Source: Moraxellaceae bacterium | Lineage (GTDB): Bacteria; Pseudomonadota; Gammaproteobacteria; Pseudomonadales; Moraxellaceae | Length of the DNA stretch: 64,000 nucleotides | Direction of reading: 5' to 3' | Assembly: GCA_003543245.1 (NCBI GenBank) | Contig: DPJB01000007.1 | Coordinates: forward strand, 6,011 to 70,010 | Shown: positions 4,929 through 53,689 of the stretch, one piece after another | Layout: each line of letters begins with the position of its first letter | Numbering within the stretch: position 1 is the stretch's first letter | The notes under the pieces: model-generated | Database searches by the model: none | What the model was told of the DNA's origin: nothing | What the model saw: the letters and a program-made list of their open reading frames with translations, nothing else | Translations under genes and position numbers: made by a program

Positions 4929-6193
4929 TTAGGGGAGGGTTACATAGGCGCCTGTACTCGAGTCGGTAATCGCAAGGCCGCCATGTGCTGGCGGACTCAC
5001 CAGTTTGTAACGGTCAAAGTTGCCATCCGCATCGGTAGCAGCCGGCAGGGTGCCGTTGTATACGCTGTCTTCCGAAATCAAAGTACCCTGAACAGCATCC
5101 GTTGGCGCAGCATTCATGCCGGTAATAGTAATACTGAGCGTGCTGGTCGCGGTCGCCCCCGATGTGTCGGTGACTGTGTAATCGGCAGACACGGTCCGAG
5201 TCGCAGCTTGCGCCAACGTGGCGTTAGCTACATCTGCAGTCGGGTCATAGCTGTAACTGCCATCACTATTCAATAGCAAGCACGCCGGGGGTATTCCGGT
5301 GATTGCAAAGCTTAAGGAGTCACCGGTATCGATATCGTAATCGTTGCCGGCTACAGACCCATTGATCAGAGGGCCATTTTCTTGTGCGGTCGCCACATCA
5401 GTCACCACCACCGGCGCATCGTTGGTGCTGGTAATAGTGATAGTGAGTGCGCCCTGGTCGCTCAGGCTGCCGTCGGTGACGGTGTAGCCGGCGACGCTGC
5501 CGGTGATGGTCGCGCCTTCGGCCCGCCGGCGCTGTCGTCCTGCGCGACGGGTGCGCCGTTGCCCATAATGGTAAATATGTGCTCAACCTCTACCGTTATG
5601 GGGTTGCCTGAGGTATCTGTCACGATAACTAAGGCATGTATTTTATGGGTGCCTGCAGTGCCGAGAGCGCGCCCCCGAACCGCGATAGAAAATGTTTTAT
5701 TGTCGGGATTGATCGTCGTAACCACTTGGGAGCCATCGGGTAACGATAAAGTCACTACGTCGCCGGCGTTTGCTCCTCGCATCCAGCCCGAAATCGTTAC
5801 ATCTGCTCAAGCTTGAATAAGGGAGAGCACGTTATCCCCAGTGATGGGCTCAAGCTTGATGACGGGATCTTTTGCGGCGGATGATCTGTTATTTTTAAAG
5901 GCCCCCGACATTGATGTGCCGCTAAAAAGCCCAGGCAAGGCTACTACTGGAATCAACAGTGGCAGGACGGAACTGGAGTCGAGAAATGCGACAGTCACGT
6001 CCCCGATTGGTTGTTCATCTAGGTAGAGCCCTTCTATGCGAATAACTTATCCTCCGACCAACACTAGCAGTTACGCTGATCCTTCGTGCGCAATTGAAGC
6101 AACATCCTCCTGCGAAAACAGATAGTTGCTGTTGGTGACATCTGGCTCGACAACGTACGTTCCAGCCTTGAAAGGAATTTCGAGGGTCGACAT
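4929..6193 (-). pseudogene. 5' remnant of a giant BapA/LapA-type (Ig-like/VCBS repeat) adhesin gene
   Basis: An AAGGAG RBS precedes ATG 6193 (MSTLEIPFKAGTYVV..). In-frame stops lie at 6071-6073 (TAA), 6047-6049 (TAA) and 5807-5809 (TGA). A frameshift occurs near 5520. Motifs include VIRIEGLYL, ITGDNVLS.., APVAQDDSA, and NDAPVVVTDVATAQENGPLINGSVAGNDYDIDTGDSLSF. The remnant has no RTX repeats or C-terminal secretion signal. Confidence 0.7.
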
Positions 6194-6694: not shown

Positions 6695-7741
6695 ATGGAG
6701 TCTACGTTGGTTGAAATGCGTCCAATAAAAGTGGCTGTGCGGCTATTTGATGCTCGCGAACATTGGCATCTTAGTCGCGCAATCGAAGCGGGGGCGCGCA
6801 TGGCCGGATTCCCTCTGCAGGTTGATGTTCCGGCTGGGGAGGCTGATATTTTGGTGGTGGCGCCCGAGGAGCCGGGTGCAGAAGTTCTATTGCGGGGGCG
6901 TGCCGGTCAGCTTTATCCACTTCCCGTTGCCTATGGTTTGGGGTGTGATGCGACGCACGTCTTGGATCGGCCTGCACGTGCTAGGGATGTTAAGGAGCTG
7001 CTGGAGAGGATCGTTCCAGGCATCATGTCGGCTAAGCCTCTGCACGGTGCCGCAGAGGTTGAGGCGGAGGGCTTAAGGGTGTACTCGCTACCTTTTGGAG
7101 TGAGAAATCTGCAGGCGGTTCTCGAGAACATCATTGAGTCACATCACAATGGTAATCCCTTAGAGGTTTCCTGCGCATCCGGAGGCTCGCTTATATTGAT
7201 TCCGCGCTTGCGGAGGGTATTCGGCGCTAAGCATAAGAGTGCCCATGAGGTGGCTGCCTGCATTAGTGAGGCCGGCGAGCCGACGATTAGGATATTGAGT
7301 CACGATGAGGCTCGTGAGCGTTGTGAGGGAAGCGGTCTTAATGCTGTTTCGCTGGAGTCTGTGGCATGGGAGCTGTCGATGATGGCCGTACCTACTCCGG
7401 TCAATTATAGCAATATTCATGGTCTCTTGGTCAGGCTTAGACGATGGCCGAATTTTTCTCTGCTGCCTCATCGTCAAGTACACCTGCAGCTTGCTGCTTT
7501 GTTGGTGCGCAAACAGATGCCCGTTGCTGAGCTGCTTCAACGGATGCCGAATGAATTTGACACGCTGGCCCGATTTCTCAATGCCTGCTGCGCGATTGGA
7601 GTGCTTGAGGTTTCGCCAGTGGCAGACTCTATAAAAGTGCCAGAGTCGTCTGGCGAGATTGAGTCTGGCGAGATTGAGTCTGGGGGGGAGGTAAAGGCGG
7701 GGATTTTTCGGAAGCTAATCGCGAGGCTTGCGCGGCGATGA
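6695..7741 (+). CDS. hypothetical protein, first gene of the GTPase operon; possible pseudo-receiver N-terminus and DUF742-like winged-helix C-terminus (348 aa)
   Basis: An AGAAGGAG RBS sits 6 nt before ATG 6695. The stop overlaps the next start (ATGA at 7738). The C-terminal segment LPHRQVHLQLAALLVRKQMPVAELLQRMPNEFDTLARFLNACCAIGVLEV resembles the HTH-like core of CvnC/DUF742. Function is not established. Confidence 0.6.
   Translation: MESTLVEMRPIKVAVRLFDAREHWHLSRAIEAGARMAGFPLQVDVPAGEADILVVAPEEPGAEVLLRGRAGQLYPLPVAYGLGCDATHVLDRPARARDVKELLERIVPGIMSAKPLHGAAEVEAEGLRVYSLPFGVRNLQAVLENIIESHHNGNPLEVSCASGGSLILIPRLRRVFGAKHKSAHEVAACISEAGEPTIRILSHDEARERCEGSGLNAVSLESVAWELSMMAVPTPVNYSNIHGLLVRLRRWPNFSLLPHRQVHLQLAALLVRKQMPVAELLQRMPNEFDTLARFLNACCAIGVLEVSPVADSIKVPESSGEIESGEIESGGEVKAGIFRKLIARLARR
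7649..7690 (+). repeat. 15-bp direct tandem repeat, about 2.5 copies (tctggcgagattgag), followed by a G7 run
   Basis: Two identical copies lie at 7649-7663 and 7664-7678, followed by a partial third copy. They encode SGEIE-SGEIE-SGGEV near the C-terminus of the first operon gene. Confidence 0.85.
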
Positions 7742-8301
7742 ACGAAATCTATGAGCTTAAGATTGTGATTACTGGGTGTGTTGGTGCCGGCAAGAGTACC
7801 GCGATTTCTGCAATTAGCGATATTCCGGTAATTTCTACCGAGGTTGACGCATCAGATGAGGTCGCAAAGGAAAAGAAGACTACAACGGTTGCCATGGATT
7901 ATGGCGAGGTTACCTTGGAGGACGGTCAGATTATAAAGATATATGGTACGCCGGGGCAGAAGCGCTTTGCTTATATGTGGGAGATATTGGCAGAGGGCGC
8001 GCTGGGTATCATTATCTTGCTTAATGACAAGCGTCCTGATCCTGTAGGTGATATGGATATGTACTTGGAAAATTTCAATGAACAGATTCGCCAGTCGGTG
8101 GCTGTTATTGGGGTTACTCATGCCGAGGATGATGCTGAGGGAGTGGCAATGTCAAAATACTACGACTATCTTTCGGAGCGCGGGCTTAATCATCCAGTCT
8201 TCTCGGTCGATGCGCGGGATAAGATGCAGATGAGGCTTATGCTGGAAACCATGGCGGCAATTATCGGCAGCGAGGAGATGTTGGATGGAAGAGTTGATTG
8301 A
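7738..8301 (+). CDS. Ras-superfamily small GTPase, CvnD/MglA-like (187 aa)
   Basis: It has the P-loop GCVGAGKST, the segment KKTTTVAMDYGEV, and a G3 motif YGTPGQKRF (PGQ as in MglA and CvnD). Overall it resembles conservon CvnD 'ATP/GTP-binding protein'. It is translationally coupled on both sides. Confidence 0.8.
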   Translation: MNEIYELKIVITGCVGAGKSTAISAISDIPVISTEVDASDEVAKEKKTTTVAMDYGEVTLEDGQIIKIYGTPGQKRFAYMWEILAEGALGIIILLNDKRPDPVGDMDMYLENFNEQIRQSVAVIGVTHAEDDAEGVAMSKYYDYLSERGLNHPVFSVDARDKMQMRLMLETMAAIIGSEEMLDGRVD

Positions 8302-8698
8302 GAGCGAGCCTCAGAAGCGAATCAACGGATACTTGCGTGCGCTCGTGGAGCGGGTTGATTCTTGTGTAGGAGCAATCATTACCACTGTTGATGGGCATCT
8401 CGTGGCGCGTGCTGAGAGATCAGAGTTGCCGGCGAAGCGATTAGCAGCGATGGGTAGTACTTTGATGTCGCTCGGTAATACGATCACGCGTGAGCTTGAT
8501 ATGGGTAAATGCCGCAATGTGATTTCAGAGAATGAGAATGGTGTTGTAGTTTTTCTCCAGGTTTCGCCAAAGTCAGTTCTTGTTGCTGCGTGCAGCGATC
8601 GTGGCAGTCTGGGCATGATGCTAAGTGCTGCCAAGGCGTGTATTGATGAAATATTGCTAGATTCAAAGTTAAATGCTTCAAAACCACAACAACAGTAA
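8285..8698 (+). CDS. Roadblock/LC7 (MglB/CvnB-like) domain protein (137 aa)
   Basis: The sequence VDSCVGAIITTVDGHLVARAE...RLAAMGSTLMSLGNTITREL...VISENENGVVVFLQV...VLVAACSDRGSLGMMLSAAK follows the Robl_LC7 pattern. The start overlaps the GTPase 3' end by 17 nt. Confidence 0.8.
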   Translation: MEELIESEPQKRINGYLRALVERVDSCVGAIITTVDGHLVARAERSELPAKRLAAMGSTLMSLGNTITRELDMGKCRNVISENENGVVVFLQVSPKSVLVAACSDRGSLGMMLSAAKACIDEILLDSKLNASKPQQQ

Positions 8699-8712
8699 GG
8701 AAGGGTATAAAA

Positions 8713-9120
8713 ATGGCTACACTTAATGAGATATGTAAGGGAATTCTGGGTGATGTGGAAGGCGCTGTGGGGTGTGCAGTGGTTGACCTGAATTCGGGTC
8801 TGATGCTGGCAAGTGCGCACAGTGTTCCCTATTTTTCGCAGACGTATATCGATGCGGTGGCTGCTGCATCTGTGGAAATGTTTCGTGGCAAGAATATCGT
8901 GGCTGTGGAGAAGCTGCTGGCCTCACAGCGTGGCGTTCCTGTCAGTAAGAGCATTCAAGAGATGCAGATGACGACGGCAGGAACGTTCCACTTCATGTCT
9001 GTAATTCCAGAAAAGCCGGATGCACTGGTTGTTCTGATTACTTCGCGCAAGGCCAATCTTGGTATGGGTTGGTCTGCGCTGCGTCGTGCCTTGGGTGAGA
9101 TAGCGCCTCTTTGTCCTTGA
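8713..9120 (+). CDS. second Roadblock/LC7-like protein (135 aa)
   Basis: The sequence LGDVEGAVGCAVVDLNSGLMLAS...AAASVEMFRG...MQMTTAGTFHFMSVIPEKPDALVVLITSRKANLGMGWSALR fits the Roadblock pattern but is more divergent. An aaggaagggtataaaaATG RBS is present. Confidence 0.65.
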   Translation: MATLNEICKGILGDVEGAVGCAVVDLNSGLMLASAHSVPYFSQTYIDAVAAASVEMFRGKNIVAVEKLLASQRGVPVSKSIQEMQMTTAGTFHFMSVIPEKPDALVVLITSRKANLGMGWSALRRALGEIAPLCP

Positions 9121-9196
9121 GGGCGATTTATATTTCCGATTGGGCTAGATATCGGGGGCGATTTTGTTGTCTCCCCCGGTATGTCGTGGATTTCAC

Positions 9197-10702
9197 ATGG
9201 ATATCTATGTTGTCGGTGCAATAGGAGGTTGTCCTGTTTCTGAGGTGGCGATCAGGGATGTGCTGGCGCATCCTGTTGAAATAAATACCGGTAATGGTTT
9301 TATAGGGCGACCCGGGACGCGGCTCTGTGTTTCGGAAGCTTATGTGGCAAAGATCAAAAACGACTTTTCGATGGCGGAGCGCGAAGCCAAGGATTGGTGT
9401 CGTCTGCAGTTGGAGAAGGAGTGTGGGTTTGGGATCTATCACTCAAGCAGAACATGGTTTTGTTTCAGTAATGGAAGTGGTTATGCGACTGCAAACATTA
9501 CGAGCAGGTTGCCTGTTCTTTCGCAGGTATTGAGTACGGCTGAGGGGGAGGATTACTGTGACCTTCTGATTCAGCTTGTCGACTTCTATTTCAGCTTTTA
9601 TCGACGCTGTGGGCGACGTCAGGATGAGGGGCTGACAAATTACGGTGTTGATGAGGGGCGTCTCTGCTATCTGGATGATGATCTGTATGAGGTTGATAGT
9701 GGCCTGTCCTTTGCGGTTAGTTTGGCGGGGTATTTTCGAGCGATTCCTGGGGTAGGTGTTGATGCTGCCAGGCGGCTAGGGGAGGCCCTGAGGGCGCAGA
9801 TGATGTTGTTGGGGCGGAATTCGCCCGATACATTTGCGCGCAATTTTCGTGATACGTTCCTCTCTCAGGAAAAGGAGCCGTTGCGGGCGGCGCTTCTGGG
9901 GGCGCTATTGCCGGAGCCAGTGGTTGGCGCGCAACGACAGGATGGCTTGGTGCCTATGGCGGGTCGGGTTGCTGTGCTGGCCGATATTCACGCCAATCTG
10001 AGGGCTCTCACCGCTGTATTGGCAGATATGGCGAAGCTCGGGCTGGAGCAGGCGATTGTCCTTGGGGATGTGGTTGGTTACGGGCCTGATCCAGCTGCCT
10101 GTGTCGAGATGCTGGAGCAGCGAGGCTTCCAGATCATTCGTGGAAACCATGATGAGGCAGCAGGAACAGGTAAAATCATGGCGGGCTCTAGTCGAGCGGC
10201 TGCATGGTCAATTCCATGGACGCGCGAGCAGTTGTCGGATAGTCAGCGTGAGTGGCTTTCCGAGCTTCCGCTTTATTTGCGAAGCGATGATTTTCTTGCA
10301 GTGCATGGTGCCCCTGTCGATCCTACATTCATGAATGCTTATGTTTACGCTATGACAAGTGATGCTAACTTGGATTATCTTCAGAAGCAGCGTATTCGTC
10401 TCTGCTTTCACGGGCATACGCATGTTCCCGGATGTTGGTATCGCGATCAGGGGGGGGTGACTCGGTTTAGCAAGGATCGATCGCAATTGCACTCGTCAGC
10501 GAGTACCTTGCTTGTGTGTCCTGGCTCTGTGGGGCAGTCTCGTGACGGATCGGATGCGGCGAGCTATCTGGTCTATGATGGCGCGATCCGGTCATTCGAG
10601 TGGCGACAGATAAACTATGACATTGATGGTCTGCGGCGCGATATGTCGGATCTGGGGTTCCCTGAATTTGTCCAGCGTCTTTATGCTTCCGTTGCAGATT
10701 AG
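9197..10702 (+). CDS. fusion of an uncharacterised ~270-aa N-terminal domain with a C-terminal calcineurin-like metallophosphoesterase (about 501 aa)
   Basis: The MPP motifs are VAVLADIHAN, LGDVVGYGPDP, GNHDE, LAVHGAP and FHGHTHVPG. The start is uncertain: TTG at 9164 or ATG at 9197. I chose the ATG. Confidence 0.8.
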   Translation: MDIYVVGAIGGCPVSEVAIRDVLAHPVEINTGNGFIGRPGTRLCVSEAYVAKIKNDFSMAEREAKDWCRLQLEKECGFGIYHSSRTWFCFSNGSGYATANITSRLPVLSQVLSTAEGEDYCDLLIQLVDFYFSFYRRCGRRQDEGLTNYGVDEGRLCYLDDDLYEVDSGLSFAVSLAGYFRAIPGVGVDAARRLGEALRAQMMLLGRNSPDTFARNFRDTFLSQEKEPLRAALLGALLPEPVVGAQRQDGLVPMAGRVAVLADIHANLRALTAVLADMAKLGLEQAIVLGDVVGYGPDPAACVEMLEQRGFQIIRGNHDEAAGTGKIMAGSSRAAAWSIPWTREQLSDSQREWLSELPLYLRSDDFLAVHGAPVDPTFMNAYVYAMTSDANLDYLQKQRIRLCFHGHTHVPGCWYRDQGGVTRFSKDRSQLHSSASTLLVCPGSVGQSRDGSDAASYLVYDGAIRSFEWRQINYDIDGLRRDMSDLGFPEFVQRLYASVAD

Positions 10703-10731
10703 CCGCCTTGGATGTGAAAACTGGAGGCGTT

Positions 10732-11637
10732 GTGAATAATTATCATTTGGAGGATTTGGCTCTTGTAAGGCGCTCTGCCGCGACGCTCCGTGGCTGCATT
10801 GATGATAGCCTTCCCTATTTTATTTCTTCGCTTTCTTCGGGTTTTCCGGGGATTGGCAGTCTCTTGCCAACAGTTGAGGCTCAGCGCAGGAAGTTCAGTG
10901 CGATGCTTGCGACACTGGGTAGTGAGCGAATGTTTGAGGATCGTGAGTTCATTATGAGTCAGATGGGGCGTCGTCATGCTTCGTATGGCGTTATCAAAGG
11001 GCACGTCCCCGCACTTGAGATGGCCCTAATGGCAACAGTTGAGCGTTTTGATGGGGAAGTAACGCTACGGGCTCTGGATGCGTGGAAGAGAGTGCTGGGT
11101 GAATATCTTAGGCTCATGTCCGAGTCCTTGCCCGAGTTGTCCAGCATGGGAGGCGTTGTGGAGGCGGCGGTCGGCGATTCTCGAACCTCTACCCTGCTGG
11201 ATGATGTTGGTGGGGAGGCAGTCGTCGAGGCGGTGCACAGAAGGTTCTATCGGGAAGTATTTGATGACCCATGGATTGGAATATTCTTTTATGGAAAGAG
11301 CATTGATTCTCTTGTTATGAAACAGACTAAGTTCATGGTTGCTGCTTTCGGGGGGGGGGATGATTACAAATGGGAAGCTCCCGACGTTGCGCACTTACAC
11401 ATGTATATCACTGATGAGCAAGCCGACATAAGAGAAATAATTCTGCGTAATGCTATTCGTGAGCAAGGGCTATCAGCCTCCGTCGAGGAGCGTTGGCTTG
11501 CTACGGATCAGTCTTTTCGGTCGGCTATTGTCAAGACTAGTATTGAGTCTTGTCGGGTGCGTGGGCCAGGTCAAGTCCCGCTCGCTGCCCGTCGGCCCGA
11601 GGGATATCGGGTGCCAGTCTTGCTTCCCAGAGACTAA
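10732..11637 (+). CDS. two-domain globin: N-terminal 3/3-type globin-like domain plus C-terminal truncated (2/2) bacterial-like globin (about 301 aa)
   Basis: A GGAGG sits 4 nt before GTG 10732; the ORF track starts at TTG 10708. The N-terminal half has MGRRHASYGVIKGHVPALEMALMATVERF...ALDAWKRVLGEYLRLM, a classical proximal-His/G-H helix pattern. The C-terminal half has VEAVHRRFYREVFDDPWIGIFF...KQTKFMVAAFGGGDDYKW...VAHLHMYITDEQADI, a Bac_globin pattern. Confidence 0.7.
   Translation: MNNYHLEDLALVRRSAATLRGCIDDSLPYFISSLSSGFPGIGSLLPTVEAQRRKFSAMLATLGSERMFEDREFIMSQMGRRHASYGVIKGHVPALEMALMATVERFDGEVTLRALDAWKRVLGEYLRLMSESLPELSSMGGVVEAAVGDSRTSTLLDDVGGEAVVEAVHRRFYREVFDDPWIGIFFYGKSIDSLVMKQTKFMVAAFGGGDDYKWEAPDVAHLHMYITDEQADIREIILRNAIREQGLSASVEERWLATDQSFRSAIVKTSIESCRVRGPGQVPLAARRPEGYRVPVLLPRD
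11350..11359 (+). repeat. G10 homopolymer inside the globin CDS
   Basis: The run was read directly: ttcGGGGGGGGGGat, encoding F-G-G-G-D. It is the longest of several poly-G runs in this island: G7 at 6351-6357, G7 at 7682-7688 and G8 at 10450-10457. Confidence 0.9.
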
Positions 11638-11667: not shown

Positions 11668-11925
11668 TTAATGGAATATCCTGCGCAAATTGAGATGTTC
11701 CATTGTAAGCCTCCCCTGGAACTGGACATCAGTTCCTAGAGGCTTCGGCCAATTGGGTCTCGTACCGTTGTCTACCCGAATCGACTGAGGCAAGGGGCGC
11801 CAGCCTTTCACCTGCTCAAGTGTGCGGATCACACGAGCGGATGGCATCGATGTGTCCACCTCGATGGCCAATGCCTCCCGATTAAACTCGTCGATCAGAT
11901 TCAGCGTACGGAATCTGGCGGCCAT
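11668..11925 (-). mobile_element. IS3-family transposase (OrfB/rve) remnant
   Basis: The sequence FRTLNLIDEFNREALAIEVDTSMPSARVIRTLEQVKGWRPLPQSIRVDNG matches the IS3 integrase core, and the downstream part is scrambled or deleted. There is no intact OrfA/OrfB and I found no terminal repeats. Confidence 0.65.
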
Positions 11926-12008: not shown

Positions 12009-12618
12009 TACTCAAAAGCGGGAGGACGTCGACCAGCTCTGTTCAAGCTGGCTGAGGCTGGTGACGCAGCAAAGTCCGAAGTACTGCGGGCGCGCCGGCA
12101 GCTCAACGAGTTGCTTGCTTTGGTTATCAGCAAACGCAATGCTTTTCGTCAGGAGGCGCAGTTCGAGCTAGTCAAGACGCACGCCGAGCTCGCTCAGACC
12201 GAGCAGGTCTACACACAGCGCGGGGCGGCGTTGGGATCGACTTTCCTGCGCGCGCCCATGGCCGGCATTGTCAATAACGTGCATGACCACGCGCGGTGCT
12301 GTGCTGCGCGCGGGCGACAAGCTACTGCAGATCGTGCCCTCTGATGACCCACTCATCGTAGAGGCCAAGGTGGCGCCCGCTGACGTCGCCTTTCTCCGTA
12401 ACGGCCTGCGTGCTAGTGTCAAGCTTGATGCTTGGGACTACACGTTATACGGCTCTCTTAAAGGCAGGGTGGTGTACATCAGCCCGGACACGCTCGAAGA
12501 GGAAATGCACGGCGAGATGCGTCCGTATTATCGTGTGCATATTCAGACCGACAGCAATACTCCCGAGGGTCGCAAGCCGCTGCGCCGCACGGTAGACGAG
12601 GCGATGCATGAGCCCTGA
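12009..12618 (+). pseudogene. HlyD-family type I secretion membrane-fusion protein remnant (5'-truncated, frameshifted, 3'-divergent)
   Basis: The coiled-coil part is AEAGDAAKSEVLRARRQLNEL...AELAQTEQVYTQR. APMAGIVNNV then shifts frame near 12285 into TTRGAVLRAGDKLLQIVPSDDPLIVEAKVAPADVAFLRNGLRASVKLDAWDYTLYGSLKGRVVYISPDTL. The usual C-terminal TM-proximal end is missing. Confidence 0.75.
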
Positions 12619-12623
12619 TGCCT

Positions 12624-14693
12624 TCAGCCCTGCGAGTCATAATGCATGGTGTCGCCGGGGGGCTGCAGGAAATAACCTTGCAGGAAGTGCACACCAAGTG
12701 TCCACAGCTTTGACAGGGTCGTGGCATTTTCGACATACGACACAATGACTTTCTTCTCGTCAGCCGCCAGATCGGCACAAATTTTCTTCATGGCACCCAG
12801 GCTCTGCTCGTTGCCCAGGTCTTCGGTGAAGGAGCGATCCAGCTTCACGTGCGACACGGTGACATGCTTGAGCGTATTGAGCGGATTGAGGGTGGTGCCA
12901 AAGTGGCTGATGGCTACCGGGCAGCCGGCTTGCGTGAGTGCAAAGGTCTGCTCCTTGGCGGCTTGCAGGTAGGTCACCATGTCGCTTTCGGCGAATTGCA
13001 GGACAATGGGCTGGCCGCTCGGATTAATGGCCTTGGAGAGCTTGCTGATCCATGCTGGCAGGCTTGTGTCCTGCAGGGACTCGGCCGTGAGATTGACCAT
13101 CATGCGGGATTTTGGGCTGATCTTGGTGTGCTCCTTCAACTGCTTGGCTGCATTGAGCATTACCCAGCGGTCTACCTTGGCACCCAACTGGTTGGCGATG
13201 GCGATCGGCATGAATACATCCGGCGTGAGCACTTTGCCGTCCTGCAGCGGCAGGCGGACAAACACCTCATAGAACTCGCCACCTTCACCCATGACGTCGA
13301 CCAGAGGCTGGTATTGCAGCTTGAACTTGCTCTGCTCGATGGCATCGATCAGCAACTCCAGCATGGCGGAATCGGAGCTGGAGGCTTTTTCGGCCAGATT
13401 GAATACTTCGACACCATTGCCCTTGGCCAGCTTGATCTTTTCCGATGCCGATATGGCGCGGCTGAGCATTTCAGCGGAGTTGGGGGCGGTTTCGCCCACG
13501 ATGGTAATGCCGATGCTCAGACTGGTTTGCTGTGTCTTGCCGTCGGGCAGGGCAATCAATTGATCATGCACTTCCTTGCACAGGATCTCTGCTTCAGCCT
13601 TGGCCTTCTCTACTTCCAGGCCGGGCACGAGCACGGCAAAAGCCGCGTCACCAAAGCGGGCGGTATCGGTACTCCTGAAGTGCTTGCCAAGGAGTGTGGC
13701 AACAAACTTGATGACGGCATCCGTTCCTGCGAGACCGGATGAGGCAGCGATCTGCGTCAGGTTGTCGATGGCCAGGTAGAACAGGGCAGATCGGGACTTG
13801 TCCTGATGCGACTTGCGAACAGCATCTGCCAGAGTGGTTTCGAAGCGCTGTCGGTTGGCGAGGCCAGTAAGGGAGTCGACGTTGGTGGCCACTTTCAGCT
13901 TCTCGGCAAGCTCTGCCGCCTTGCCGTCGTCACGGCGGATGATGATCTGTGTGCAGGGCTCGCCATCGTAACTGGCGGCTGACAGTTGCATCATGGCGTC
14001 AATTTTCTCGCCATCGGCCTTCATGCCATGGAAGCGCAGGTCAGCAGAAATGCTTTCTCCCTTGTTGTAGGTTTTCAGGTAGTCCTTGAAGTTGCTCAGG
14101 TCTTCCTTGGCCACCAGGTCAACAATTGGCATGCCTTCAAGGTCATCCGCACTTTCATGCCCGAACAGCTCGGCATAGGCCATGTTGGCGTAGATGTGCA
14201 TGCCGTCATGTACATAGGCAATCGCATCGCGAGAGTTGTCGAGCAGAAGTTCACAGCGCTTTTCGGTCTCGGCCAGTTGCGCCTCGGCCTTGCGCCGTAC
14301 GCGACGGCTTTGCAGGCTGGCCAGCTCGCGCTTGATAGCCAGTACCAGATGCGGGTGCGTGTCATGAACCACGGCATCGCACGCGCCGGCCTGCAGGCAC
14401 TCCACCACGATTTCCGGATCGTATTTTTCGAGCAGGACGATGCAGGGAATGTCCTTGTCCAGCTTGCGGACATGAGACAGTGCGATGTCGAAGGTGACAC
14501 CGTTGGTGATCTCGCCCACCAGCATGATGTCCCAGGGATTGTCCTTGAGCGCATCCGCGAGGCTGTCCGCGTCAGACACCATTTCCGGACGCGTCGCAAT
14601 GCCGGAGTTCTTCAGGGCATTGATGACCTGCTCGGTGTTGTCCTGCGATTCGTGCAGCACGAGCAGTCGGATGGTCTCGTTCTTGGGAGGCAT
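12624..14693 (-). CDS. fimX: FimX-like REC-PAS-GGDEF(degenerate)-EAL(degenerate) c-di-GMP protein (689 aa)
   Basis: It has an N-terminal receiver-like domain and a PAS region (LLLDNSRDAIAYV). The GGDEF position reads RFGDAAF and the EAL position reads YEVFVRL (EVF). Length and context (serB side, PilZ gene, psd) match P. aeruginosa FimX as I recall it. Confidence 0.8.
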   Translation of the reverse strand: MPPKNETIRLLVLHESQDNTEQVINALKNSGIATRPEMVSDADSLADALKDNPWDIMLVGEITNGVTFDIALSHVRKLDKDIPCIVLLEKYDPEIVVECLQAGACDAVVHDTHPHLVLAIKRELASLQSRRVRRKAEAQLAETEKRCELLLDNSRDAIAYVHDGMHIYANMAYAELFGHESADDLEGMPIVDLVAKEDLSNFKDYLKTYNKGESISADLRFHGMKADGEKIDAMMQLSAASYDGEPCTQIIIRRDDGKAAELAEKLKVATNVDSLTGLANRQRFETTLADAVRKSHQDKSRSALFYLAIDNLTQIAASSGLAGTDAVIKFVATLLGKHFRSTDTARFGDAAFAVLVPGLEVEKAKAEAEILCKEVHDQLIALPDGKTQQTSLSIGITIVGETAPNSAEMLSRAISASEKIKLAKGNGVEVFNLAEKASSSDSAMLELLIDAIEQSKFKLQYQPLVDVMGEGGEFYEVFVRLPLQDGKVLTPDVFMPIAIANQLGAKVDRWVMLNAAKQLKEHTKISPKSRMMVNLTAESLQDTSLPAWISKLSKAINPSGQPIVLQFAESDMVTYLQAAKEQTFALTQAGCPVAISHFGTTLNPLNTLKHVTVSHVKLDRSFTEDLGNEQSLGAMKKICADLAADEKKVIVSYVENATTLSKLWTLGVHFLQGYFLQPPGDTMHYDSQG

Positions 14694-14820: not shown

Positions 14821-16647
14821 TCAAAGACTTGCCCAGATGGAGTCAAAGTCCTCGTCGTCATGTGCACTGTTGGTGCGTGTAGCAGCAGCTTCGCCTTCGG
14901 TCGGGCGTCGCATAAGGGTGAATTCGAACTGGCTGAAACTCTGTGTGGCGCTGACCTGCTGGGTCAGCTGTGCCTTGACCTCTTCGCCGTCCAGGTTCAG
15001 CACCAGCTTGTAGCCGGTCCGGAACGTCAGCGCCGGGGTGATCAGTGTGGCCGGACGACTGATGGCTTTCATCTCCGGCAACAGCAGTGTCCGCATGTAT
15101 TCGGAGGCTTCACCGGTTTTCTTGATGACGCGCGCTCCGCAAGGCTTGGCTTTGGGTGCCAGGACTTCGACGCCCAGTTGCGCCCCGTGACCTGGCAACT
15201 GCTTGACCCAGCGGATGACGCCCACGCTCCAGCCATTGTGGCCATCTTCGCGCAGGCCGAGGATTTCGCCAGCCTTCACGCTGGCCGGGACATCCCCGAT
15301 CCACTCGATGCAATAGCCGCCCGGGCTGATGTTCACGATCTGGCATTGATGGGTGTCGTAACGGTCAGGGCCTGTCTGGGCCTTTTCCTGGAAGGCAAGC
15401 TTGTACTCGTGCTGTTCATTGCTTTCAACGTTGCCAAAGGCCATGGCCCAGACGTCCTTGCCATTCCGGTCATCGGGGCGATGGCTTGCGCCGCCAAGTG
15501 GCTTGGGCTTGAGGAAGGGGTTGTCCTCGTCCGCAATCATGAAGCGGCTCTGGATGCCCTGCATCATGGTGTCGAAATCATGCTTGCCGGCCAGAAAGTA
15601 ATGCGAGGCAGTGAGACCAAGGGATATCTCCAGCATGCCGTCATGCATGACACGGGAAAAGCTGCGCTCACTCAGCTCGCTCCATGCCTGCACCAGATGC
15701 TGCAGCAGGGCCGAGTTGAGTGCGGCTTCGCCACTGGACTTGGGGCTACCTTGCTGGGCCAGTTTGAGCAGTTCGGTCAGGCGTTCCACCAGCGCGGTAG
15801 GGACAATGGCGCGGACGTGGTCTGCCGCTCCAGCCTGTGCCTGTGAACGGTAGGTGGGGGGTGCGTCCTTTGCCAGGTCAAACACAAAGAGTTCGCCGGA
15901 ACCACTGAACTCACGAAGCCTGACCAGAGGCGCCCATATTTCGCTCAGCTGGCCGATCTGGGCGATTTCGCTCTGGCGCAGCTTGTTGGGTTTGCAGGTG
16001 GCCAGCAGGAGCGCCTGGATATAAGCCTCTTCCAGAGTGGTTTTTTCAGCATGGCGGTGGAGCATGTCACTGACCGGAACCAGCAGCAGTTGCTGCTCGG
16101 CGCCCAGCAGATAAAGCGTGTGAAGCTCCAGCCAGAGGTTGGGTGGTGTGTTCAGGTAGAGCTGTGTGGAGCGCAGCAGGTTGCCGGTAAGCTCCGAGAT
16201 GGCGCGCTGGGTGGCGACAGAGGCCAGGCGGATGCTTTCAGGTTCGCGCTTGCGTGCCAGCTTGTCCAAGCCTGCCAGTGCGACAAGCTTGTAGCCGGTG
16301 GCAAGATGGCTTTGCATGGCCTGTGCCAGCGTGGCGACCTTGGTGGCCCGCTCCGGCAGCATGACTGACTGGTTGAGATAGTGTTTTGACAGCGAGTTGC
16401 AGAGGGCGTGAACGGTCGGGCGCAGGATTTCCAGCAGATCCAGCCGCTCTGCGGCGTCAACTTGCAGGCGAGTCAGCTCCTGCAGTGTCTGGAATACCTG
16501 GCGCGAGGTTTCGCCGACATTCATCATGGGCAGAGCGTCAACCCACTCCTTGAGCTTTTTGGGCTGGTGATTGACGAGGCTCAGCCGGCTCAGGTCCTGA
16601 GCCGGAAGACGTTGCCGCAGGGGTTCAGCGTTGCTGACCATGGACAC
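14821..16647 (-). CDS. large PilZ-domain protein (608 aa)
   Basis: The C-terminal region QIVNISPGGYCIEW...GEILGLRE...WSVGVIRWV fits the PilZ beta-barrel NxSxxG motif. The ~430-aa N-terminal region is uncharacterised. By position it is syntenic with the gene next to fimX in Pseudomonas. Confidence 0.7.
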   Translation of the reverse strand: MSMVSNAEPLRQRLPAQDLSRLSLVNHQPKKLKEWVDALPMMNVGETSRQVFQTLQELTRLQVDAAERLDLLEILRPTVHALCNSLSKHYLNQSVMLPERATKVATLAQAMQSHLATGYKLVALAGLDKLARKREPESIRLASVATQRAISELTGNLLRSTQLYLNTPPNLWLELHTLYLLGAEQQLLLVPVSDMLHRHAEKTTLEEAYIQALLLATCKPNKLRQSEIAQIGQLSEIWAPLVRLREFSGSGELFVFDLAKDAPPTYRSQAQAGAADHVRAIVPTALVERLTELLKLAQQGSPKSSGEAALNSALLQHLVQAWSELSERSFSRVMHDGMLEISLGLTASHYFLAGKHDFDTMMQGIQSRFMIADEDNPFLKPKPLGGASHRPDDRNGKDVWAMAFGNVESNEQHEYKLAFQEKAQTGPDRYDTHQCQIVNISPGGYCIEWIGDVPASVKAGEILGLREDGHNGWSVGVIRWVKQLPGHGAQLGVEVLAPKAKPCGARVIKKTGEASEYMRTLLLPEMKAISRPATLITPALTFRTGYKLVLNLDGEEVKAQLTQQVSATQSFSQFEFTLMRRPTEGEAAATRTNSAHDDEDFDSIWASL

Positions 16648-44502: not shown

Positions 44503-45039
44503 ATGCGCGAATGGACCATGCTTTTCCTGTTGGCCGTGATCGTGTTGCCGGCAGCATGGATTGATTTTCGTCAGCGTCGTATTCCAAATGAATTGTGTCT
44601 TGCCGGCATTCTGCTTGGCGTGATGTATCACCTGTTGACTGCCGGATTGACCGGTGCCGGATTTTCCCTGCTTTCTTTTCTGCTCGCATTCGCAGCGGGT
44701 TTTCCGCTCTGGTTGCTGGGGTGGATGGGTGCGGGTGATGTAAAGCTTGTTGCTGCGGTAGGCGCAATTGTCGGGATGAAGCTGCTACTTCCTGTTCTGG
44801 CGGGAGTTGCGATTGCCGGTGGTGCTGTTGCACTTGTTTATCTGGTTGTCTTGCGTCTTCAGGATGAGCCGCTGTATGTGATTGTGGCCTCATCGCTGGC
44901 ATCTCAAAAAAACGGGGGTCTGCAGACGCAGGCAGCCATTGATGGTGTACCTGAGCCGGTGGCAATGAAGAAAAAAGGCATTCCTTATGCAATACCTGTG
45001 GCACTTGGCAGTTTGGCGGCTATTGTTTATGTGAGTTGA
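44503..45039 (+). CDS. tadV: A24-family prepilin peptidase (TadV/CpaA)
   Basis: It is a polytopic membrane protein with WIDFRQRRIPNE and WMGAGDVKL (two catalytic Asp contexts). Confidence 0.85.
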   Translation: MREWTMLFLLAVIVLPAAWIDFRQRRIPNELCLAGILLGVMYHLLTAGLTGAGFSLLSFLLAFAAGFPLWLLGWMGAGDVKLVAAVGAIVGMKLLLPVLAGVAIAGGAVALVYLVVLRLQDEPLYVIVASSLASQKNGGLQTQAAIDGVPEPVAMKKKGIPYAIPVALGSLAAIVYVS

Positions 45040-45092
45040 TGCTGAGGCATGGCATTCGTATTTAATGGCGCGATTTTATCGAGGAGCGCGTG

Positions 45093-46028
45093 ATGCAGAT
45101 TAGAGCATTGATCATGCTGGCGGTGGCCCTGGTACTAGGGGGTATTACCGTATTTCTCGTCAACAACTTCCTGCAAAGTGAGGTTGGGGACCAGGGGCGG
45201 GTGCAGAAGTTGCGCACAGTGCCGGTTGTTGTGGCAGCACAGGATATCAAGTCAGGTACAAAGCTTGAGGCCGTGATGCTGACAGCTGTTGACTGGCCGT
45301 CTGAAACGGTGCCCGATGGCGTCTATGCGGATGTAGCAACCGTGATTGGTGAAAAGCCTCCTGTGCTGTTGCAGGAAACCAAGCGCGGTGAAGTCATCCT
45401 GCCGTACAAACTGTCTCCGCACGGTGCCCGTGGCGGGTTGCCGGCGCGTATTCCTGAAGACATGCGTGCAACCACCATCCCGGTTTCTGAAATCACCGGC
45501 GTGGCAGGTTTCATTGCGCCTGGCGATTTTGTGGATGTACTGCATACATCGGCAGTAGGACGCAGTGACGAGCTGCCGGTGACCAGGGTGCTCATGCAGA
45601 ACGTACAGGTGCTGGGTATCGACCAGATAAGCTCACAGGACGATGCCAAGCCAAAAATTGTGAATGCAGTGACGTTGCTTGTGAACCCGGAGTCTGGTCA
45701 GCGGCTGACACTGGCGCTGGCGACTGGCTCGCTCAGCTTGCTGCTGCGTAACGAGTTTGATGCATCGCTGCTTGCTACAAAAGATATTGCCTGGCGCCAG
45801 CTGGTGCCAGAAGAAGCGGTCGCCGTTGTAGAGCAGCCAAAGGTGGTCAGGCGCGAGCGTCGTGTCGTCACGATAATAAAGCAACAGGCACCAGCAACAG
45901 CACTTCCGGCAAAAACCTCAGATCGTGTTGAGGTAATTCGTGGGCTGAATGTCTCTCGACAGGATGTCCCCAGCACACCGGCAGCCAATGATGCGACGTC
46001 AGCAAAGCCTGACGAGGCAAAACCCTGA
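45093..46028 (+). CDS. cpaB: Flp pilus assembly protein CpaB/RcpC
   Basis: It has an N-terminal TM, a SAF-like segment VPVVVAAQDIKSGTKL, and an RcpC-type C-terminal region. Confidence 0.8.
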   Translation: MQIRALIMLAVALVLGGITVFLVNNFLQSEVGDQGRVQKLRTVPVVVAAQDIKSGTKLEAVMLTAVDWPSETVPDGVYADVATVIGEKPPVLLQETKRGEVILPYKLSPHGARGGLPARIPEDMRATTIPVSEITGVAGFIAPGDFVDVLHTSAVGRSDELPVTRVLMQNVQVLGIDQISSQDDAKPKIVNAVTLLVNPESGQRLTLALATGSLSLLLRNEFDASLLATKDIAWRQLVPEEAVAVVEQPKVVRRERRVVTIIKQQAPATALPAKTSDRVEVIRGLNVSRQDVPSTPAANDATSAKPDEAKP

Positions 46029-46042
46029 GTACTGGAGAGATC

Positions 46043-47509
46043 ATGAACAAGTGCATGAAGCTGCACGCCCTCGGGGCGGCCATATTGGCATCGTTGCTGG
46101 TAGCAGGGCCGGTGCAGGAGTCTTTTGCTGCGGATACAGATACCGTGGCGCTGGAATTTGGTGAGCGCAAGCCAACAGACCTTCGTCTGGCCATTGGCCA
46201 GTCACAGATCATCCAGTCCAGCGTTCCACTGGAGCAGGTGGTTATCGGTAGCCCGGATGTCGCGGATATCAAGTTGTTGTCATCCCGCCGCGTACTCATT
46301 CTGGGCATCAAGCCGGGGCGCACGAATCTGGTTTTTCGCCAGAAAGACGGTGATCTGGTTGCGATCATGAATGTCAGCGTGGGTTACGACCTGAGTGGTA
46401 TCAAGTACAAGCTTCATGAGCTGATGCCACACGAGCCGGCAATGGAGGTACGTGACACCAATGACCGTGTCATCCTGTCCGGAGAAGTGTCCAGCACGCT
46501 CTCAATGGACAAGGCACTGTCTGTGGCGCGGAGCTTTGTGCCGGCAGAAAAAGTGACCAACCTCCTGCAAGTGGCAGGTGGCCAGCAGGTCATGCTTGAG
46601 GCCCGCATTGCCGAAGTCTCGCGCACCTCCATGAAAGAGCTCGGTATCCAGGCACAATATCTGGATGGTTCGGGGAATTTCGGTGTGGTGATTGGCAAGC
46701 CGCTGGTTGGTTCCTTCGGCACCATCAGTCCGCCAAACTTCAGCTCTGCCAGCACCCTGAACCCGGTCAGCAGTCTGCTGATTCCGCCCAATTCGTTGCG
46801 TGTAAGCCTGCAGGCGCTGGAAGAAAAAGGGCTTGCCAAGACACTGGCTGAGCCCAATCTCGTCGCTCTGTCAGGTCAGGAAGCCAACTTCCTTGCGGGT
46901 GGTGAGTATCCAATTCCGGTTAATCAGGATGATACCGGTAACGTCACGGTTGATTACAAGACATTTGGTGTCGGACTTCGCTTCACACCAACCGTCCTGA
47001 ACAGTGACAAGATCAACCTGAAGCTGCTGTCGGAAGTGTCGGAAGTGGATGCCATCAATTCGTTCACGGTCAATGATCTCAGATTGCCGTCATTCTCTAC
47101 TCGCCGCGCAGGAACAACGGTTGAGCTGGCAGATGGCCAAAGTTTTGCGATTGCCGGCCTGATGACGAACAGTATGGACAATGCCATTTCGCAGTTTCCG
47201 ATTCTTGGCAACATACCCATTATTGGTGCGCTGTTCCGCTCATCAAAATACCAGCGCAACGAGTCTGAGCTGGTCATAGTTGTCACGGCACGTCTTGTCG
47301 GGCCGGTGAACAAAGGGCGTCTTGCGTTGCCAACAGACGTGATCATGCCACCAAACGATGTTGACCAGTATCTGCTCGGGCGACTGCACGGGAAGGATGT
47401 CAAACGGCCAGAGTCGTCATCAACGAGTACCAATGGCGCAACTACTGGTGGGGTGGAAGGTGTATTCGGGCATCAGCTGAGCCAGGAGAATGGCAATGTC
47501 AAACGTTAA
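46043..47509 (+). CDS. cpaC: Tad secretin CpaC/RcpA
   Basis: It has a signal peptide, a BON/T2SS-N-like region and the secretin core LAEPNLVALSGQEANFLAGGEYPIP...IPIIGALFRSS. Confidence 0.88.
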   Translation: MNKCMKLHALGAAILASLLVAGPVQESFAADTDTVALEFGERKPTDLRLAIGQSQIIQSSVPLEQVVIGSPDVADIKLLSSRRVLILGIKPGRTNLVFRQKDGDLVAIMNVSVGYDLSGIKYKLHELMPHEPAMEVRDTNDRVILSGEVSSTLSMDKALSVARSFVPAEKVTNLLQVAGGQQVMLEARIAEVSRTSMKELGIQAQYLDGSGNFGVVIGKPLVGSFGTISPPNFSSASTLNPVSSLLIPPNSLRVSLQALEEKGLAKTLAEPNLVALSGQEANFLAGGEYPIPVNQDDTGNVTVDYKTFGVGLRFTPTVLNSDKINLKLLSEVSEVDAINSFTVNDLRLPSFSTRRAGTTVELADGQSFAIAGLMTNSMDNAISQFPILGNIPIIGALFRSSKYQRNESELVIVVTARLVGPVNKGRLALPTDVIMPPNDVDQYLLGRLHGKDVKRPESSSTSTNGATTGGVEGVFGHQLSQENGNVKR

Positions 47510-47762
47510 GGTTTTGCTCGTAGCAGGTGCTGCCATGCTGATGACGGCTTGTGGTGCTACGCCGTCCATGTCAAAGGACCTGGGTGTCAGCGTCGGAATA
47601 AATACGGCAAGTCAGATGATTGATCCAAAAGCTTCGTCACGGGATCTTGTTCCGCCAACGCTGGATGGAATCAAGGCGGAAAAGGCGATGGATCGTTATC
47701 GCAAGGATCGCCCAGAGGAGAGCCGTGCAAAGCTGGTCGAGAATCTGGGTAGCAGCAATTAA
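47496..47762 (+). CDS. small Tad-associated lipoprotein
   Basis: The lipobox is AAMLMTAC|G. Its position after the secretin fits a Tad accessory gene. The family is not recognised. Confidence 0.55.
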   Translation: MSNVKVLLVAGAAMLMTACGATPSMSKDLGVSVGINTASQMIDPKASSRDLVPPTLDGIKAEKAMDRYRKDRPEESRAKLVENLGSSN

Positions 47763-47773
47763 GGGGGTGTGTC

Positions 47774-49165
47774 GTGATGCTGCAAGTGCGTCGTCAACGT
47801 GGTGCCATACTGATCATGACAGCAATATTTGTTGTCGTGCTGATCGTGGTGGCGGCATTGGCTATGGATATCGGACGCCTTGTAGTGTTGCGCAGTCAGC
47901 TTCAGAATGCTGCCGACTCCGCGGCGATTGCCGCAGCGGTAGAGCTTGATGGTGAAGATGGTGCGCGCGAGCGGGCTATGGCAGCCGCTCGCGAGGCCAT
48001 CAGGCACGATAAAAGCTTTGCGCGCATTCAGGATCTGCTGGGGGCGGGTGGGTTACCGGATGAGGCATTCAGCTTCTATTGTGTGGTTGGTGCTGAATAC
48101 GATGTTGATCCCGATGATGTCACTGATTTTGGTATTTACTGTAATGGCGCTGATGACGGTTCCGGAAAGTATGTAGCCAGTACGGATGCAGAGTCGCATT
48201 ACGTACGTGTTGATCTTGACCCGGCCAAAGCCGCAGGCCGCTTTACACTCGATCTTTTTTTCCTGCCGGTGCTCAAGCTGTTTGCGCCGGCTACGGCAAC
48301 CGAGGCTGCAGTCCGTGCCATGGCGGTTGCAGGAAAACACTCCATTCAGTGCAATTATCCTCCAATGGCGGTATGTGATCCGTTCGAGGGGCAGGGCAAG
48401 ACATTCAAGAATGACATGCCTGTCGGGACGACCATTGTCCTGCGCGACCAGGGTGCTGGTAATGGCAACTGGGCACCTGGAAATGCCGGGTTCCTGATGA
48501 GTATCGCCGGCGAAACTGGCGCAGATGCAACTGCAGACTCTCTGGCATTTCCGGATGATGATGGCTGCTCGCCGAGAAGTGTTACGTCCGAGCCGGGGCA
48601 GATGACCCAGAAAACCACGTCAGCCATCAATACCCGGTTTGACATGTATGACTCGCACTTCAAGGCGAACCAGTGGCAGAAATGGCCCCCGGCACCAAAC
48701 GTTTATGAGTATGAAGATGCAGCATCGCCAGTGGCAGTGCCTGGTCTTGATGTTGCCCGTTTCAGGCAGCCAGACTGGAATTATGCCGCTTGGCAGGCTG
48801 CCCAGATTGCCATGTATGGAGCCCTGACCAATGTTCCTCCCGAGTGGGCGGCGAAGCAGCCTCGCATGTGGGATGTCTATCAGTGGGAGATTGCCAATAA
48901 CCGGATTCTCAAGAAGCCCGTCAACGCGCATACCCCTGCGGGTTCGGCAGAGCGCCGTGTGTTTGCTGTTGCTGTTCTCAGTTGCCAGGCCTTGGGCGTA
49001 AAGGGGCGAGTCACAGTTCCGGTCAATAGCCCGGATGGTTTTGCCAAGATATTCATCTACAAGCAGGCAAAGGGGCCATCCGGAGCAGAGATTTACGGTG
49101 AATATGTCGGTTGGTTTGGTGAAGGAGAGGCAAACTACCATGTCGAAGTCCAGCTCTACGAATGA
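47774..49165 (+). CDS. tadG: TadG-like pilus assembly protein (TadE/G-like N-terminus)
   Basis: The N-terminal segment is QRGAILIMTAIFVVVLIVVAALAMDIGRLVVLRSQLQNAADSAAIAAA. Confidence 0.75.
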   Translation: MMLQVRRQRGAILIMTAIFVVVLIVVAALAMDIGRLVVLRSQLQNAADSAAIAAAVELDGEDGARERAMAAAREAIRHDKSFARIQDLLGAGGLPDEAFSFYCVVGAEYDVDPDDVTDFGIYCNGADDGSGKYVASTDAESHYVRVDLDPAKAAGRFTLDLFFLPVLKLFAPATATEAAVRAMAVAGKHSIQCNYPPMAVCDPFEGQGKTFKNDMPVGTTIVLRDQGAGNGNWAPGNAGFLMSIAGETGADATADSLAFPDDDGCSPRSVTSEPGQMTQKTTSAINTRFDMYDSHFKANQWQKWPPAPNVYEYEDAASPVAVPGLDVARFRQPDWNYAAWQAAQIAMYGALTNVPPEWAAKQPRMWDVYQWEIANNRILKKPVNAHTPAGSAERRVFAVAVLSCQALGVKGRVTVPVNSPDGFAKIFIYKQAKGPSGAEIYGEYVGWFGEGEANYHVEVQLYE

Positions 49166-50121: not shown

Positions 50122-50153
50122 TGAATAAAACGCCCATTTTGTAAGGACGTATC

Positions 50154-51365: not shown

Positions 51366-51383
51366 TTCGAGGGAGTTCCTGTC

Positions 51384-52679: not shown

Positions 52680-52692
52680 CGGGGCGTGATCG

Positions 52693-53679: not shown

Positions 53680-53689
53680 GGATTTCAGC

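Follow-up and report, generated by a model that had tools for sequence, protein, structure and literature searches.

Bacterial Ras-like guanosine triphosphatases (GTPases) that work with Roadblock partner proteins are understood mainly through the polarity system of Myxococcus and the conservons of actinobacteria, and we know of no established input, output, or mechanism for the proteobacterial systems classified as Group 3. This study analyzed a cassette of six genes, termed g1 to g6, that encodes such a GTPase and occupies positions 6695-11637 of a 64,000-nucleotide stretch from a Moraxellaceae bacterium (GenBank assembly GCA_003543245.1, contig DPJB01000007.1, positions 6,011 to 70,010 of the forward strand); this whole stretch is referred to as the window. 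In the cassette, a fusion of a kinase-like domain with a phosphoesterase and a double globin are joined to what appears to be a known Group 3 GTPase core. This combination appears to be undescribed, and the function that we infer for it is drawn by analogy with better-characterized systems.

Group 3 MglA systems were defined computationally in beta- and gammaproteobacteria (Wuichet and Sogaard-Andersen 2014, PMC4316618). In these systems, a conserved unknown protein stands alongside an MglA homologue and one or two MglB homologues; for the unknown protein, the prediction is a receiver-like domain at the N-terminus and a winged helix at the C-terminus (PMC4316618). An unusual G4 motif and a DAR sequence at G5 were reported for the GTPases of Groups 2 and 3, and Group 3 shares them with the conservon GTPases (PMC4316618). 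A Group 3 example from Snodgrassella is associated with colonization and motility phenotypes (PMC11112851). In the conservons, the DUF742 protein MfpC/CvnC is a GEF (guanine nucleotide exchange factor; PMC11343762), and the Roadblock protein MfpD/CvnB is a probable GTPase-activating protein (GAP; PMC13015309). A globin fused to a Roadblock/LC7 domain, HGbRL of Methylacidiphilum infernorum, has been proposed to be a globin-coupled sensor that acts through Roadblock (PMC4476040).

Six open reading frames (ORFs) on the plus strand, co-directional and tightly packed, fill the interval (lengths in amino acids, aa):

g1, 6695-7741, + strand: 348 aa; an AAGGAGA ribosome-binding site precedes the ATG at 6695
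g2, 7738-8301, + strand: 187 aa, small GTPase of the MglA/CvnD type
g3, 8285-8698, + strand: 137 aa, Roadblock/LC7 protein of the MglB/CvnB type
g4, 8713-9120, + strand: 135 aa, divergent Roadblock protein
g5, 9197-10702, + strand: kinase-like/metallophosphoesterase fusion; a TTG at 9164 is an alternative start, and the homologues begin at the ATG
g5 N-terminal domain, 9197-9916, + strand: aa 1-240, predicted protein-kinase-like fold, previously unannotated
g5 C-terminal domain, 9965-10702, + strand: aa 257-501, calcineurin-like dinuclear metallophosphoesterase
g6, 10732-11637 (or from 10708), + strand: 301 aa (309 aa from 10708), two-domain globin

The coordinates place an ATGA overlap of g1 and g2 at 7738-7741 and a 17-nucleotide overlap of g2 and g3 at 8285-8301; the remaining intergenic gaps are 14 (g3/g4), 76 or 43 (g4/g5), and 29 or 5 nucleotides (g5/g6). 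The same six genes were called independently in public assemblies, which include an identical sequence on a 207-kb sediment-metagenome contig. An earlier interpretation of this DNA, made from the letters and their translations (hereafter the sequence-only reading), had described six packed co-directional genes with both overlaps, and the ORF coordinates and the independent gene calls bear this out.

The kinase-like/phosphoesterase fusion

The N-terminal 240 residues of g5 can be assigned confidently, on the basis of a structural model, to a protein-kinase-like fold with the full set of catalytic residues. In an alignment of 36 full-length g5 homologues (27-59% identity), T41, K52, W87, D143, N148, Y158, D160, and D161 were invariant in this domain and E75 was nearly so. 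The predicted local distance difference test (pLDDT) score of AlphaFold2 was 92.3 for full-length g5 and 94.9 for the isolated N-terminal domain. In the g5 model, K52 lies on the third strand and E75 on the next long helix, D143-x4-N148 occupies a loop past a short strand, and D160/D161 follow the next hairpin; these conserved positions are those of the beta3 Lys, the alphaC Glu, the catalytic loop, and the DFG motif of protein-kinase-like enzymes. Because the phosphoesterase half dominated the fold search with the full-length protein, the N-terminal domain was modeled and searched alone. All of the best 50 of the 1,347 matches in the Foldseek search of the PDB were kinases, including PknG, WbdD, STK17B, KSR2, LegK7, maltokinase, AceK, and PknB.

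The domain profile found only 335 representatives among 1.84 billion clusters. Because nearly all of these are about 500-540 aa long, the kinase-like domain appears to be nearly always fused to the phosphoesterase. These members (about 335 clusters) define a small new kinase-like family whose current annotation is "metallophosphoesterase" only. The model suggests that g5 probably provides the kinase function and carries a phosphatase-type domain of its own on the same chain.

The C-terminal half of g5 matched Metallophos_2 at 1.9e-17 and Metallophos at 2.3e-14, and its metal-binding motifs (D263-x-H265, G290-D291, G316-N317-H318-D319, H370, and G406-H407-x-H409) were invariant in 36 sequences; the calcineurin-like phosphoesterase that the sequence-only reading had placed in g5 is thus present with its motifs intact. 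The nearest structures were 3rqz (6e-19), 1nnw, and SapH (3qfm), with PP1, PP2A, and lambda phosphatase ranking next. On balance, the model leads us to expect that g5 is catalytically bifunctional. Whether its target is a protein or a small molecule is the main uncertainty, and the structural neighbors allow both.

In one alternative, the target of g5 is a small molecule, for example a nucleotide second messenger, diadenosine tetraphosphate (Ap4A), or a lipid or sugar phosphate. The fusion would then consist of a small-molecule kinase and the matching hydrolase, and the GTPase and the Roadblock proteins would merely regulate or localize it. The neighbors of the N-terminal domain include the small-molecule kinases WbdD and maltokinase, and the domain is only 240 aa long, with helices directly after the DD motif and no activation segment. 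SapH is also among the nearest phosphoesterases, and the best NCBIfam match of g5 was the YfcE phosphodiesterase family. However, protein kinases (PknG, PknB, and STK17B) and PPP phosphatases are equally close, and the tight coupling of g5 to the small, highly conserved g4 fits a protein partner or substrate better. Related loci also add a DSP-type protein phosphatase. We consider a small-molecule target unlikely.

The GTPase core and the globin

The g2 protein matched PF03029 ATP_bind_1 at 6e-10 and carries GCVGAGKST and TPGQ. In a 14-member alignment of its family, the P-loop GxxGxGK[ST] and a TT in switch I were invariant, and the G3 motif read G-T-P-G-Q, with Thr replacing Asp as in MglA. 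The G4 motif of the family is not NKxD, being G-x-T-[HR] instead, and G5 is DAR, with D158 and R160 invariant. The nearest named homologues of g2 were from Moraxella, Zoogloea, and Methylococcales.

The g3 protein matched Robl_LC7 at 1.5e-7 and MAPKK1_Int (the MP1 family) at 6.9e-7, both above the Pfam threshold, and its PDB matches were 7f8m (8.6e-8), CvnB5 (3leq, 2.4e-5), and Rv3364c (4.1e-5). Among the conservon components, CvnB thus has a counterpart in g3 through the CvnB5 match, and CvnD has one in g2 through PF03029 and the DAR sequence at G5. No Pfam match was found for g4. A profile of its 20-member family matched MglC (7ct3) at 1.4e-3 and Robl (7f8m) at 0.058 in the PDB, and hhalign aligned the g4 family with the g3 family at a probability of 79.5% (E 1.5e-5). 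Because of the MglC match and the alignment to the g3 family, we consider g4 to be a divergent Roadblock protein. Through these domain matches, the sequence-only reading holds where it named g2 a CvnD/MglA-type GTPase and both g3 and g4 Roadblock/LC7 proteins, clearly for g3 and by way of the family profile and hhalign for g4.

The g4 gene was the most conserved of the set. Its product was 55-77% identical across gammaproteobacterial, zetaproteobacterial, and Nitrospira loci, where g5 was only 33-49% identical, and 46% identical in two Myxococcota loci. In the Enhygromyxa locus (L007:5949-7985), a g4-like Roadblock domain forms the C-terminal end of a 678-aa protein that also has a DUF4388 domain, and the gene for this fusion protein lies directly upstream of the kinase-like/phosphoesterase gene.

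The g1 protein is the fast-evolving member of the core and gave no Pfam, NCBIfam, or PDB sequence match above threshold. A sub-threshold Pfam match to the winged-helix OMT dimerisation domain was obtained (E 0.0035). The initial homologue search returned only 3 relatives, and the family was then built to 12 members. The profile of these 12 members matched nothing in the PDB, and no Pfam family recurred among them. In the family alignment, a [KR]-P motif accompanied a beta-alpha pattern, and a block toward the C-terminus was conserved. A pseudo-receiver-like N-terminus and a winged helix in the conserved C-terminal region are putative features of g1, and a short amphipathic tail is conserved. 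The sequence-only reading had instead given g1 a DUF742-like helix-turn-helix tail; this failed in the hidden Markov model (HMM) comparison, in which 0 of the 12 family members matched PF05331 (DUF742) even at E<=1. By its place in the gene set, g1 appears to be the counterpart of the "conserved unknown protein" in Group 3 MglA systems. The g1-g4 core, which the sequence-only reading had compared with the conservons and MglAB, is not novel: it has already been described computationally and, judged by gene set and motifs, fits the published Group 3 MglA system (PMC4316618).

The two-domain globin that the sequence-only reading had recognized in g6 was recovered in both halves, each with its proximal His. 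A 3/3 globin makes up the N-terminal half (about aa 20-135), of which aa 37-130 matched the 3/3 Hell's Gate globins (3s1i at 8e-5 and 3ubc at 1e-4). HGbRL (3wfw) was a weak match to this domain, and Pfam Globin was sub-threshold (E 0.09). The C-terminal half is a group I truncated hemoglobin (about aa 150-270); Bac_globin matched it at 4.7e-10 (residues 162-273 when the 309-aa ORF from 10708 is used), and the PDB entry 1dlw matched at 1.3e-8. In five family members, the invariant residues were G79-x-R81-H82 in the N-terminal domain, with H82 as the proximal His, and Y173 (B10), Q198 (E7), and H221 (F8) in the C-terminal domain. Besides its two globin domains, the protein has only a short tail, with no fused transmitter domain such as those of globin-coupled sensors. 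The tail (11533-11637), which is conserved among the double globins, extends about 35 residues past the truncated-hemoglobin domain; C274, G280-Q281, P289, and Y292 are invariant in it, and a second Cys occurs in most members of the double-globin family. The alignments thus show that the GTPase, both domains of g5, and both globin domains retain their predicted catalytic or ligand-binding residues.

These results bear on the model proposed in the sequence-only reading, which was a kinase-less conservon whose sensor kinase gives way to a heme sensor and a simple phosphoesterase, resulting in a gas-sensing GTPase switch with a purely hydrolytic output. The absence of a conservon-type kinase was confirmed, because no HisKA or HATPase_c domain of a CvnA-type membrane histidine kinase was found in the cassette or in the genes next to it. 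The globin domains and the phosphoesterase domain were borne out, and the GTPase and Roadblock core is conservon-like. However, the N-terminal half of g5 is kinase-like by its model, has invariant catalytic residues, and essentially never occurs apart from the phosphoesterase, and g1 is not a DUF742 protein. The cassette therefore lacks a histidine kinase and yet is not kinase-less, and the description as kinase-less was misleading. The globin does belong to the cassette, but it was present in only five of 26 related loci; it is accessory and therefore cannot be the general input of the module, as its placement in the position of the kinase had implied. We regard the kinase-less model as quite improbable.

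Conservation and genomic setting

The related loci comprised 26 other loci with the g5 fusion, of which 24 came from genome and metagenome scans and two were L091 and L092; their ORFs were searched with HMMs of the cassette families. The carriers included Methylococcales, Thiotrichaceae, Chromatiales, Woeseiaceae, Marinobacterium, Zetaproteobacteria, Nitrospira, and Myxococcota. The cassette genes were distributed as follows:

g4: 18 of 26 loci, and a partial copy where one contig ends
g1: 13 of 26 loci
g2: 11 of 26 loci
g3: 10 of 26 loci
g6 (two-domain globin): 5 of 26 loci

The constant partnership of the module is that of g4 and g5. All six genes were found in identical order in L008 and L091, with unrelated flanks. 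The globin gene was adjacent on the opposite strand in L011 and L018 and lay 5 kb downstream in L013 (Nitrospira). Homologues of g1 stood upstream of the GTPase gene where they occurred, with 17-41% identity across the related loci, and were also found within the cassettes of Moraxella bovis and Zoogloea. Two tandem g1 paralogues precede the GTPase gene in L091 (L091:1434-4043), the locus most closely related to the cassette (59% identity in g5). Cultured carriers were Methylomicrobium lacus (g1-g2-g4-g5) and Marinobacterium halophilum DSM 17586 (g1-g4-g5). Stand-alone phosphoesterases of Chloroflexota and Dormibacterota (40% identity) were considered as sharing the partners and were rejected: of 59 loci with stand-alone homologous phosphoesterases, none carried any cassette partner.

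The gene-neighborhood comparison proposed with the sequence-only reading thus revealed that the genes recur together in distant taxa, with the full six-gene order in two loci, and together with the domain matches this upholds a conservon/MglAB-like GTPase and Roadblock cassette. We consider it very likely that the genes form one conserved functional module with these domain identities.

In three loci, from Nitrospira (L013:6350-9845), Methylococcales, and Woeseiaceae (L021:2099-4484 and L026:6346-9956 for the latter two groups), a g4 paralogue and a GTPase of about 550 aa that resembles Arf and SRP-receptor-beta were inserted between g4 and g5 or g6. Two of the three also gained an ABC-ATPase fused to a DSP-type phosphatase. 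The Arf-like GTPase and DSP-phosphatase inserts support the phospho-signaling reading. Moraxella bovis and Zoogloea (L089:3281-8198 and L090:3690-8186) carry homologues of g2 (about 50% identity), g1, and g3, with g4, g5, and g6 absent. The order of genes in these two loci is Roadblock, a PAS protein, a phosphonate-type solute-binding protein, two unknown proteins (one of them g1-like), the GTPase, and a 208-aa unknown protein. Because these cassettes carry other partners, the shared GTPase core appears to recruit different accessory parts, which suggests that sensors are exchangeable on one GTPase core.

The GC content of the cassette is 0.52, compared with 0.59 in the rest of the window, and its GC content at third codon positions (GC3) is 0.46-0.54, compared with 0.70-0.73 in serB, the GGDEF-EAL gene, and fimW. 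Three gene fragments flank the cassette:

4929-5411, - strand: cadherin/Big_9 gene fragment, upstream of the cassette
11668-11925, - strand: rve (integrase-core) transposase fragment, 85 aa, directly after g6
12268-12618, + strand: truncated HlyD-family gene, downstream, after the rve fragment

These rve, HlyD, and cadherin/Big_9 fragments and the contrast in GC3 point to a probable horizontal transfer of the cassette, with a degraded type I secretion adhesin locus as the recipient site. A megablast search of plasmids with the cassette returned zero matches.

The foreign composition, the flanking transposase fragment and truncated genes, and the differing genomic contexts in L008 and L091 would also be expected if the cassette were cargo of a mobile island with a role in conflict or defense (for example, an anti-phage or toxin system) and not in housekeeping signaling, and g5 had a weak NCBIfam match to an anti-phage phosphoesterase (E 0.011). 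This explanation was set aside because PADLOC gave nothing credible for the six proteins; four of them had no match at all, and g2 had just two sub-threshold ones (E 0.024 and 0.03). In addition, the cassette contains no nuclease, protease, pore, or NADase effector, it has no plasmid match, and the homologous GTPase/Roadblock/g1 core is a chromosomal signaling set with PAS and solute-binding partners in Moraxella and Zoogloea. A defense role is highly improbable.

Other features of the window were noted beyond the island. Directly downstream of it, a PAS-GGDEF-EAL protein (12624-14693) and a FimW-family protein (14821-16647) are encoded on the opposite (-) strand. FimW is a regulator of type IV pili that is linked to cyclic di-guanosine monophosphate. 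A complete Tad/Flp pilus locus lies at 44503-54631 (+), also with a lower GC content (0.51-0.55); it encodes a prepilin peptidase, RcpC, a secretin, TadE/G-like proteins, a ParA-like ATPase, a TadA-type ATPase, and two TadB/C proteins.

Proposed mechanism and relation to known systems

With moderate confidence, and by analogy with MglA/MglB and the conservons, we favor the reading that the cassette is a horizontally acquired cytoplasmic signaling operon built on an MglA/MglB-type switch. In this mechanism, a dimer platform of the Roadblock proteins g3 and g4 would control the nucleotide state of g2, and g1, with its putative pseudo-receiver and winged helix, would be an exchange factor, an output partner, or both. 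The g5 protein would replace the histidine kinase of the conservon; its kinase-like N-terminal domain and its metallophosphoesterase C-terminal domain would together set the phosphorylation of a target, which would most likely be a component of the module or a bound protein. The g4 protein may be a dedicated docking or regulatory subunit of g5. Where g6 is present, it would bind heme and feed an O2, NO, or redox signal into the complex. Of the gas- or redox-sensing GTPase switch with an enzymatic output suggested in the sequence-only reading, the GTPase core and the enzyme are retained, and the globin as a general input is not. That the globin is the input and a protein the substrate is a tentative combination, drawn by analogy, which we hold with somewhat less than even confidence.

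Several observations weigh against this mechanism. The N-terminal domain of g5 had no Pfam or NCBIfam match, and its profile found no PDB sequence even at E<=10. Because of this, the kinase assignment draws on predicted structure and motif geometry only. Among the best 50 of 1,347 Foldseek matches, E started at 1.2e-4 and the probability was 0.90-1.0, but template modeling (TM) scores were only 0.35-0.48, and the domain has no clear glycine-rich nucleotide loop, only a conserved G37-x-P-x-T41 loop. The C-terminal domain lies closest to uncharacterized enzymes and to an Ap4A hydrolase/phosphodiesterase (SapH), and because of these neighbors a nucleotide, and not a protein, could be the substrate. 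In Marinobacterium, only g1, g4, and g5 occur and the GTPase is missing, Thiomargarita-type loci have g5 alone, and the globin is absent from most related loci; because of such loci, neither the GTPase nor the globin is obligatory for g5. Co-transcription of the six genes as an operon is suggested by gene spacing only. A promoter and terminator scan was uninformative, with fewer promoter-like sites than in shuffled sequence and no convincing internal terminator.

In a bolder form of the proposed signaling mechanism, the cassette would be a heme-gated G-protein switch in which a g3/g4 heterodimer controls the GTPase and scaffolds an unrecognized bacterial kinase family that carries its own opposing phosphatase. 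We consider this form speculative and rather unlikely. If it were true, the cassette would show in bacteria the counterpart of Ragulator/MP1 logic, with a Roadblock platform acting together with a small GTPase and a kinase, and would provide the first bacterial link of gas or redox sensing to a small-GTPase cycle.

The cassette offers the Group 3 class a candidate enzymatic partner and, in some lineages, a candidate heme sensor. With these two candidates found, testable hypotheses can be framed on what such switches sense and do. In agreement with the sequence-only reading, which knew of no described system of this composition, our literature search found no paper on it or on kinase-like/metallophosphoesterase fusions, although this is weak evidence because coverage was incomplete; a survey paper on globin neighborhoods names none of the partners in the cassette.

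Among eukaryotic systems, the Ragulator/MP1-p14 complex and the Rag GTPases resemble the proposed arrangement, in that a Roadblock heterodimer platform binds small GTPases and scaffolds a kinase (MEK1). The MAPKK1_Int match of g3 lies above the Pfam threshold; the likeness is an analogy only, with no orthology implied, and the scaffolding role of g3 and g4 is putative. The likeness to AceK is that the same polypeptide is predicted both to phosphorylate a target and to dephosphorylate it, and AceK, one of the best structural matches, reached a TM score of up to 0.48 against the N-terminal domain of g5. However, both reactions of AceK take place in one kinase-like active site, whereas g5 has two separate predicted catalytic domains.

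In HGbRL, as in the cassette, a heme globin of the same 3/3 subgroup as the N-terminal domain of g6 is linked to Roadblock. In contrast to HGbRL, g6 is a separate two-domain protein (3/3 plus 2/2) that is tied to Roadblock by operon membership only, and a GTPase and a putative kinase/phosphatase enzyme are present as well.

The actinobacterial conservon (CvnA-D/MfpB-E) likewise combines an ATP_bind_1/MglA-type GTPase, a Roadblock protein, an accessory protein of helix-turn-helix type, and an enzymatic partner in one operon. The cassette probably shares the conservon logic, with a Roadblock protein as the GAP and the accessory protein as the GEF. It differs from the conservon in the absence of CvnA, in a g1 that is not DUF742, in gene order, in its two Roadblock genes, and in its proteobacterial host; the kinase-like/phosphoesterase fusion and the globin would take the enzymatic and sensory roles.

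The Group 3 MglA system is also among the closest described systems. The g1-g2-g3-g4 genes form the same set in the same order and in a gammaproteobacterial host, and the motifs of g2 agree (Thr in G3, a G4 other than NKxD, and DAR at G5). The defining paper mentions no phosphoesterase or globin and no enzyme or sensor partner (PMC4316618), whereas here, in a defined subset of loci, the gene after the second Roadblock gene encodes a kinase-like/phosphoesterase fusion, often accompanied by a double globin. The second Roadblock protein of this subset, g4, also differs from that of the published Group 3 systems, being a distinct and unusually conserved lineage that is tied to g5.

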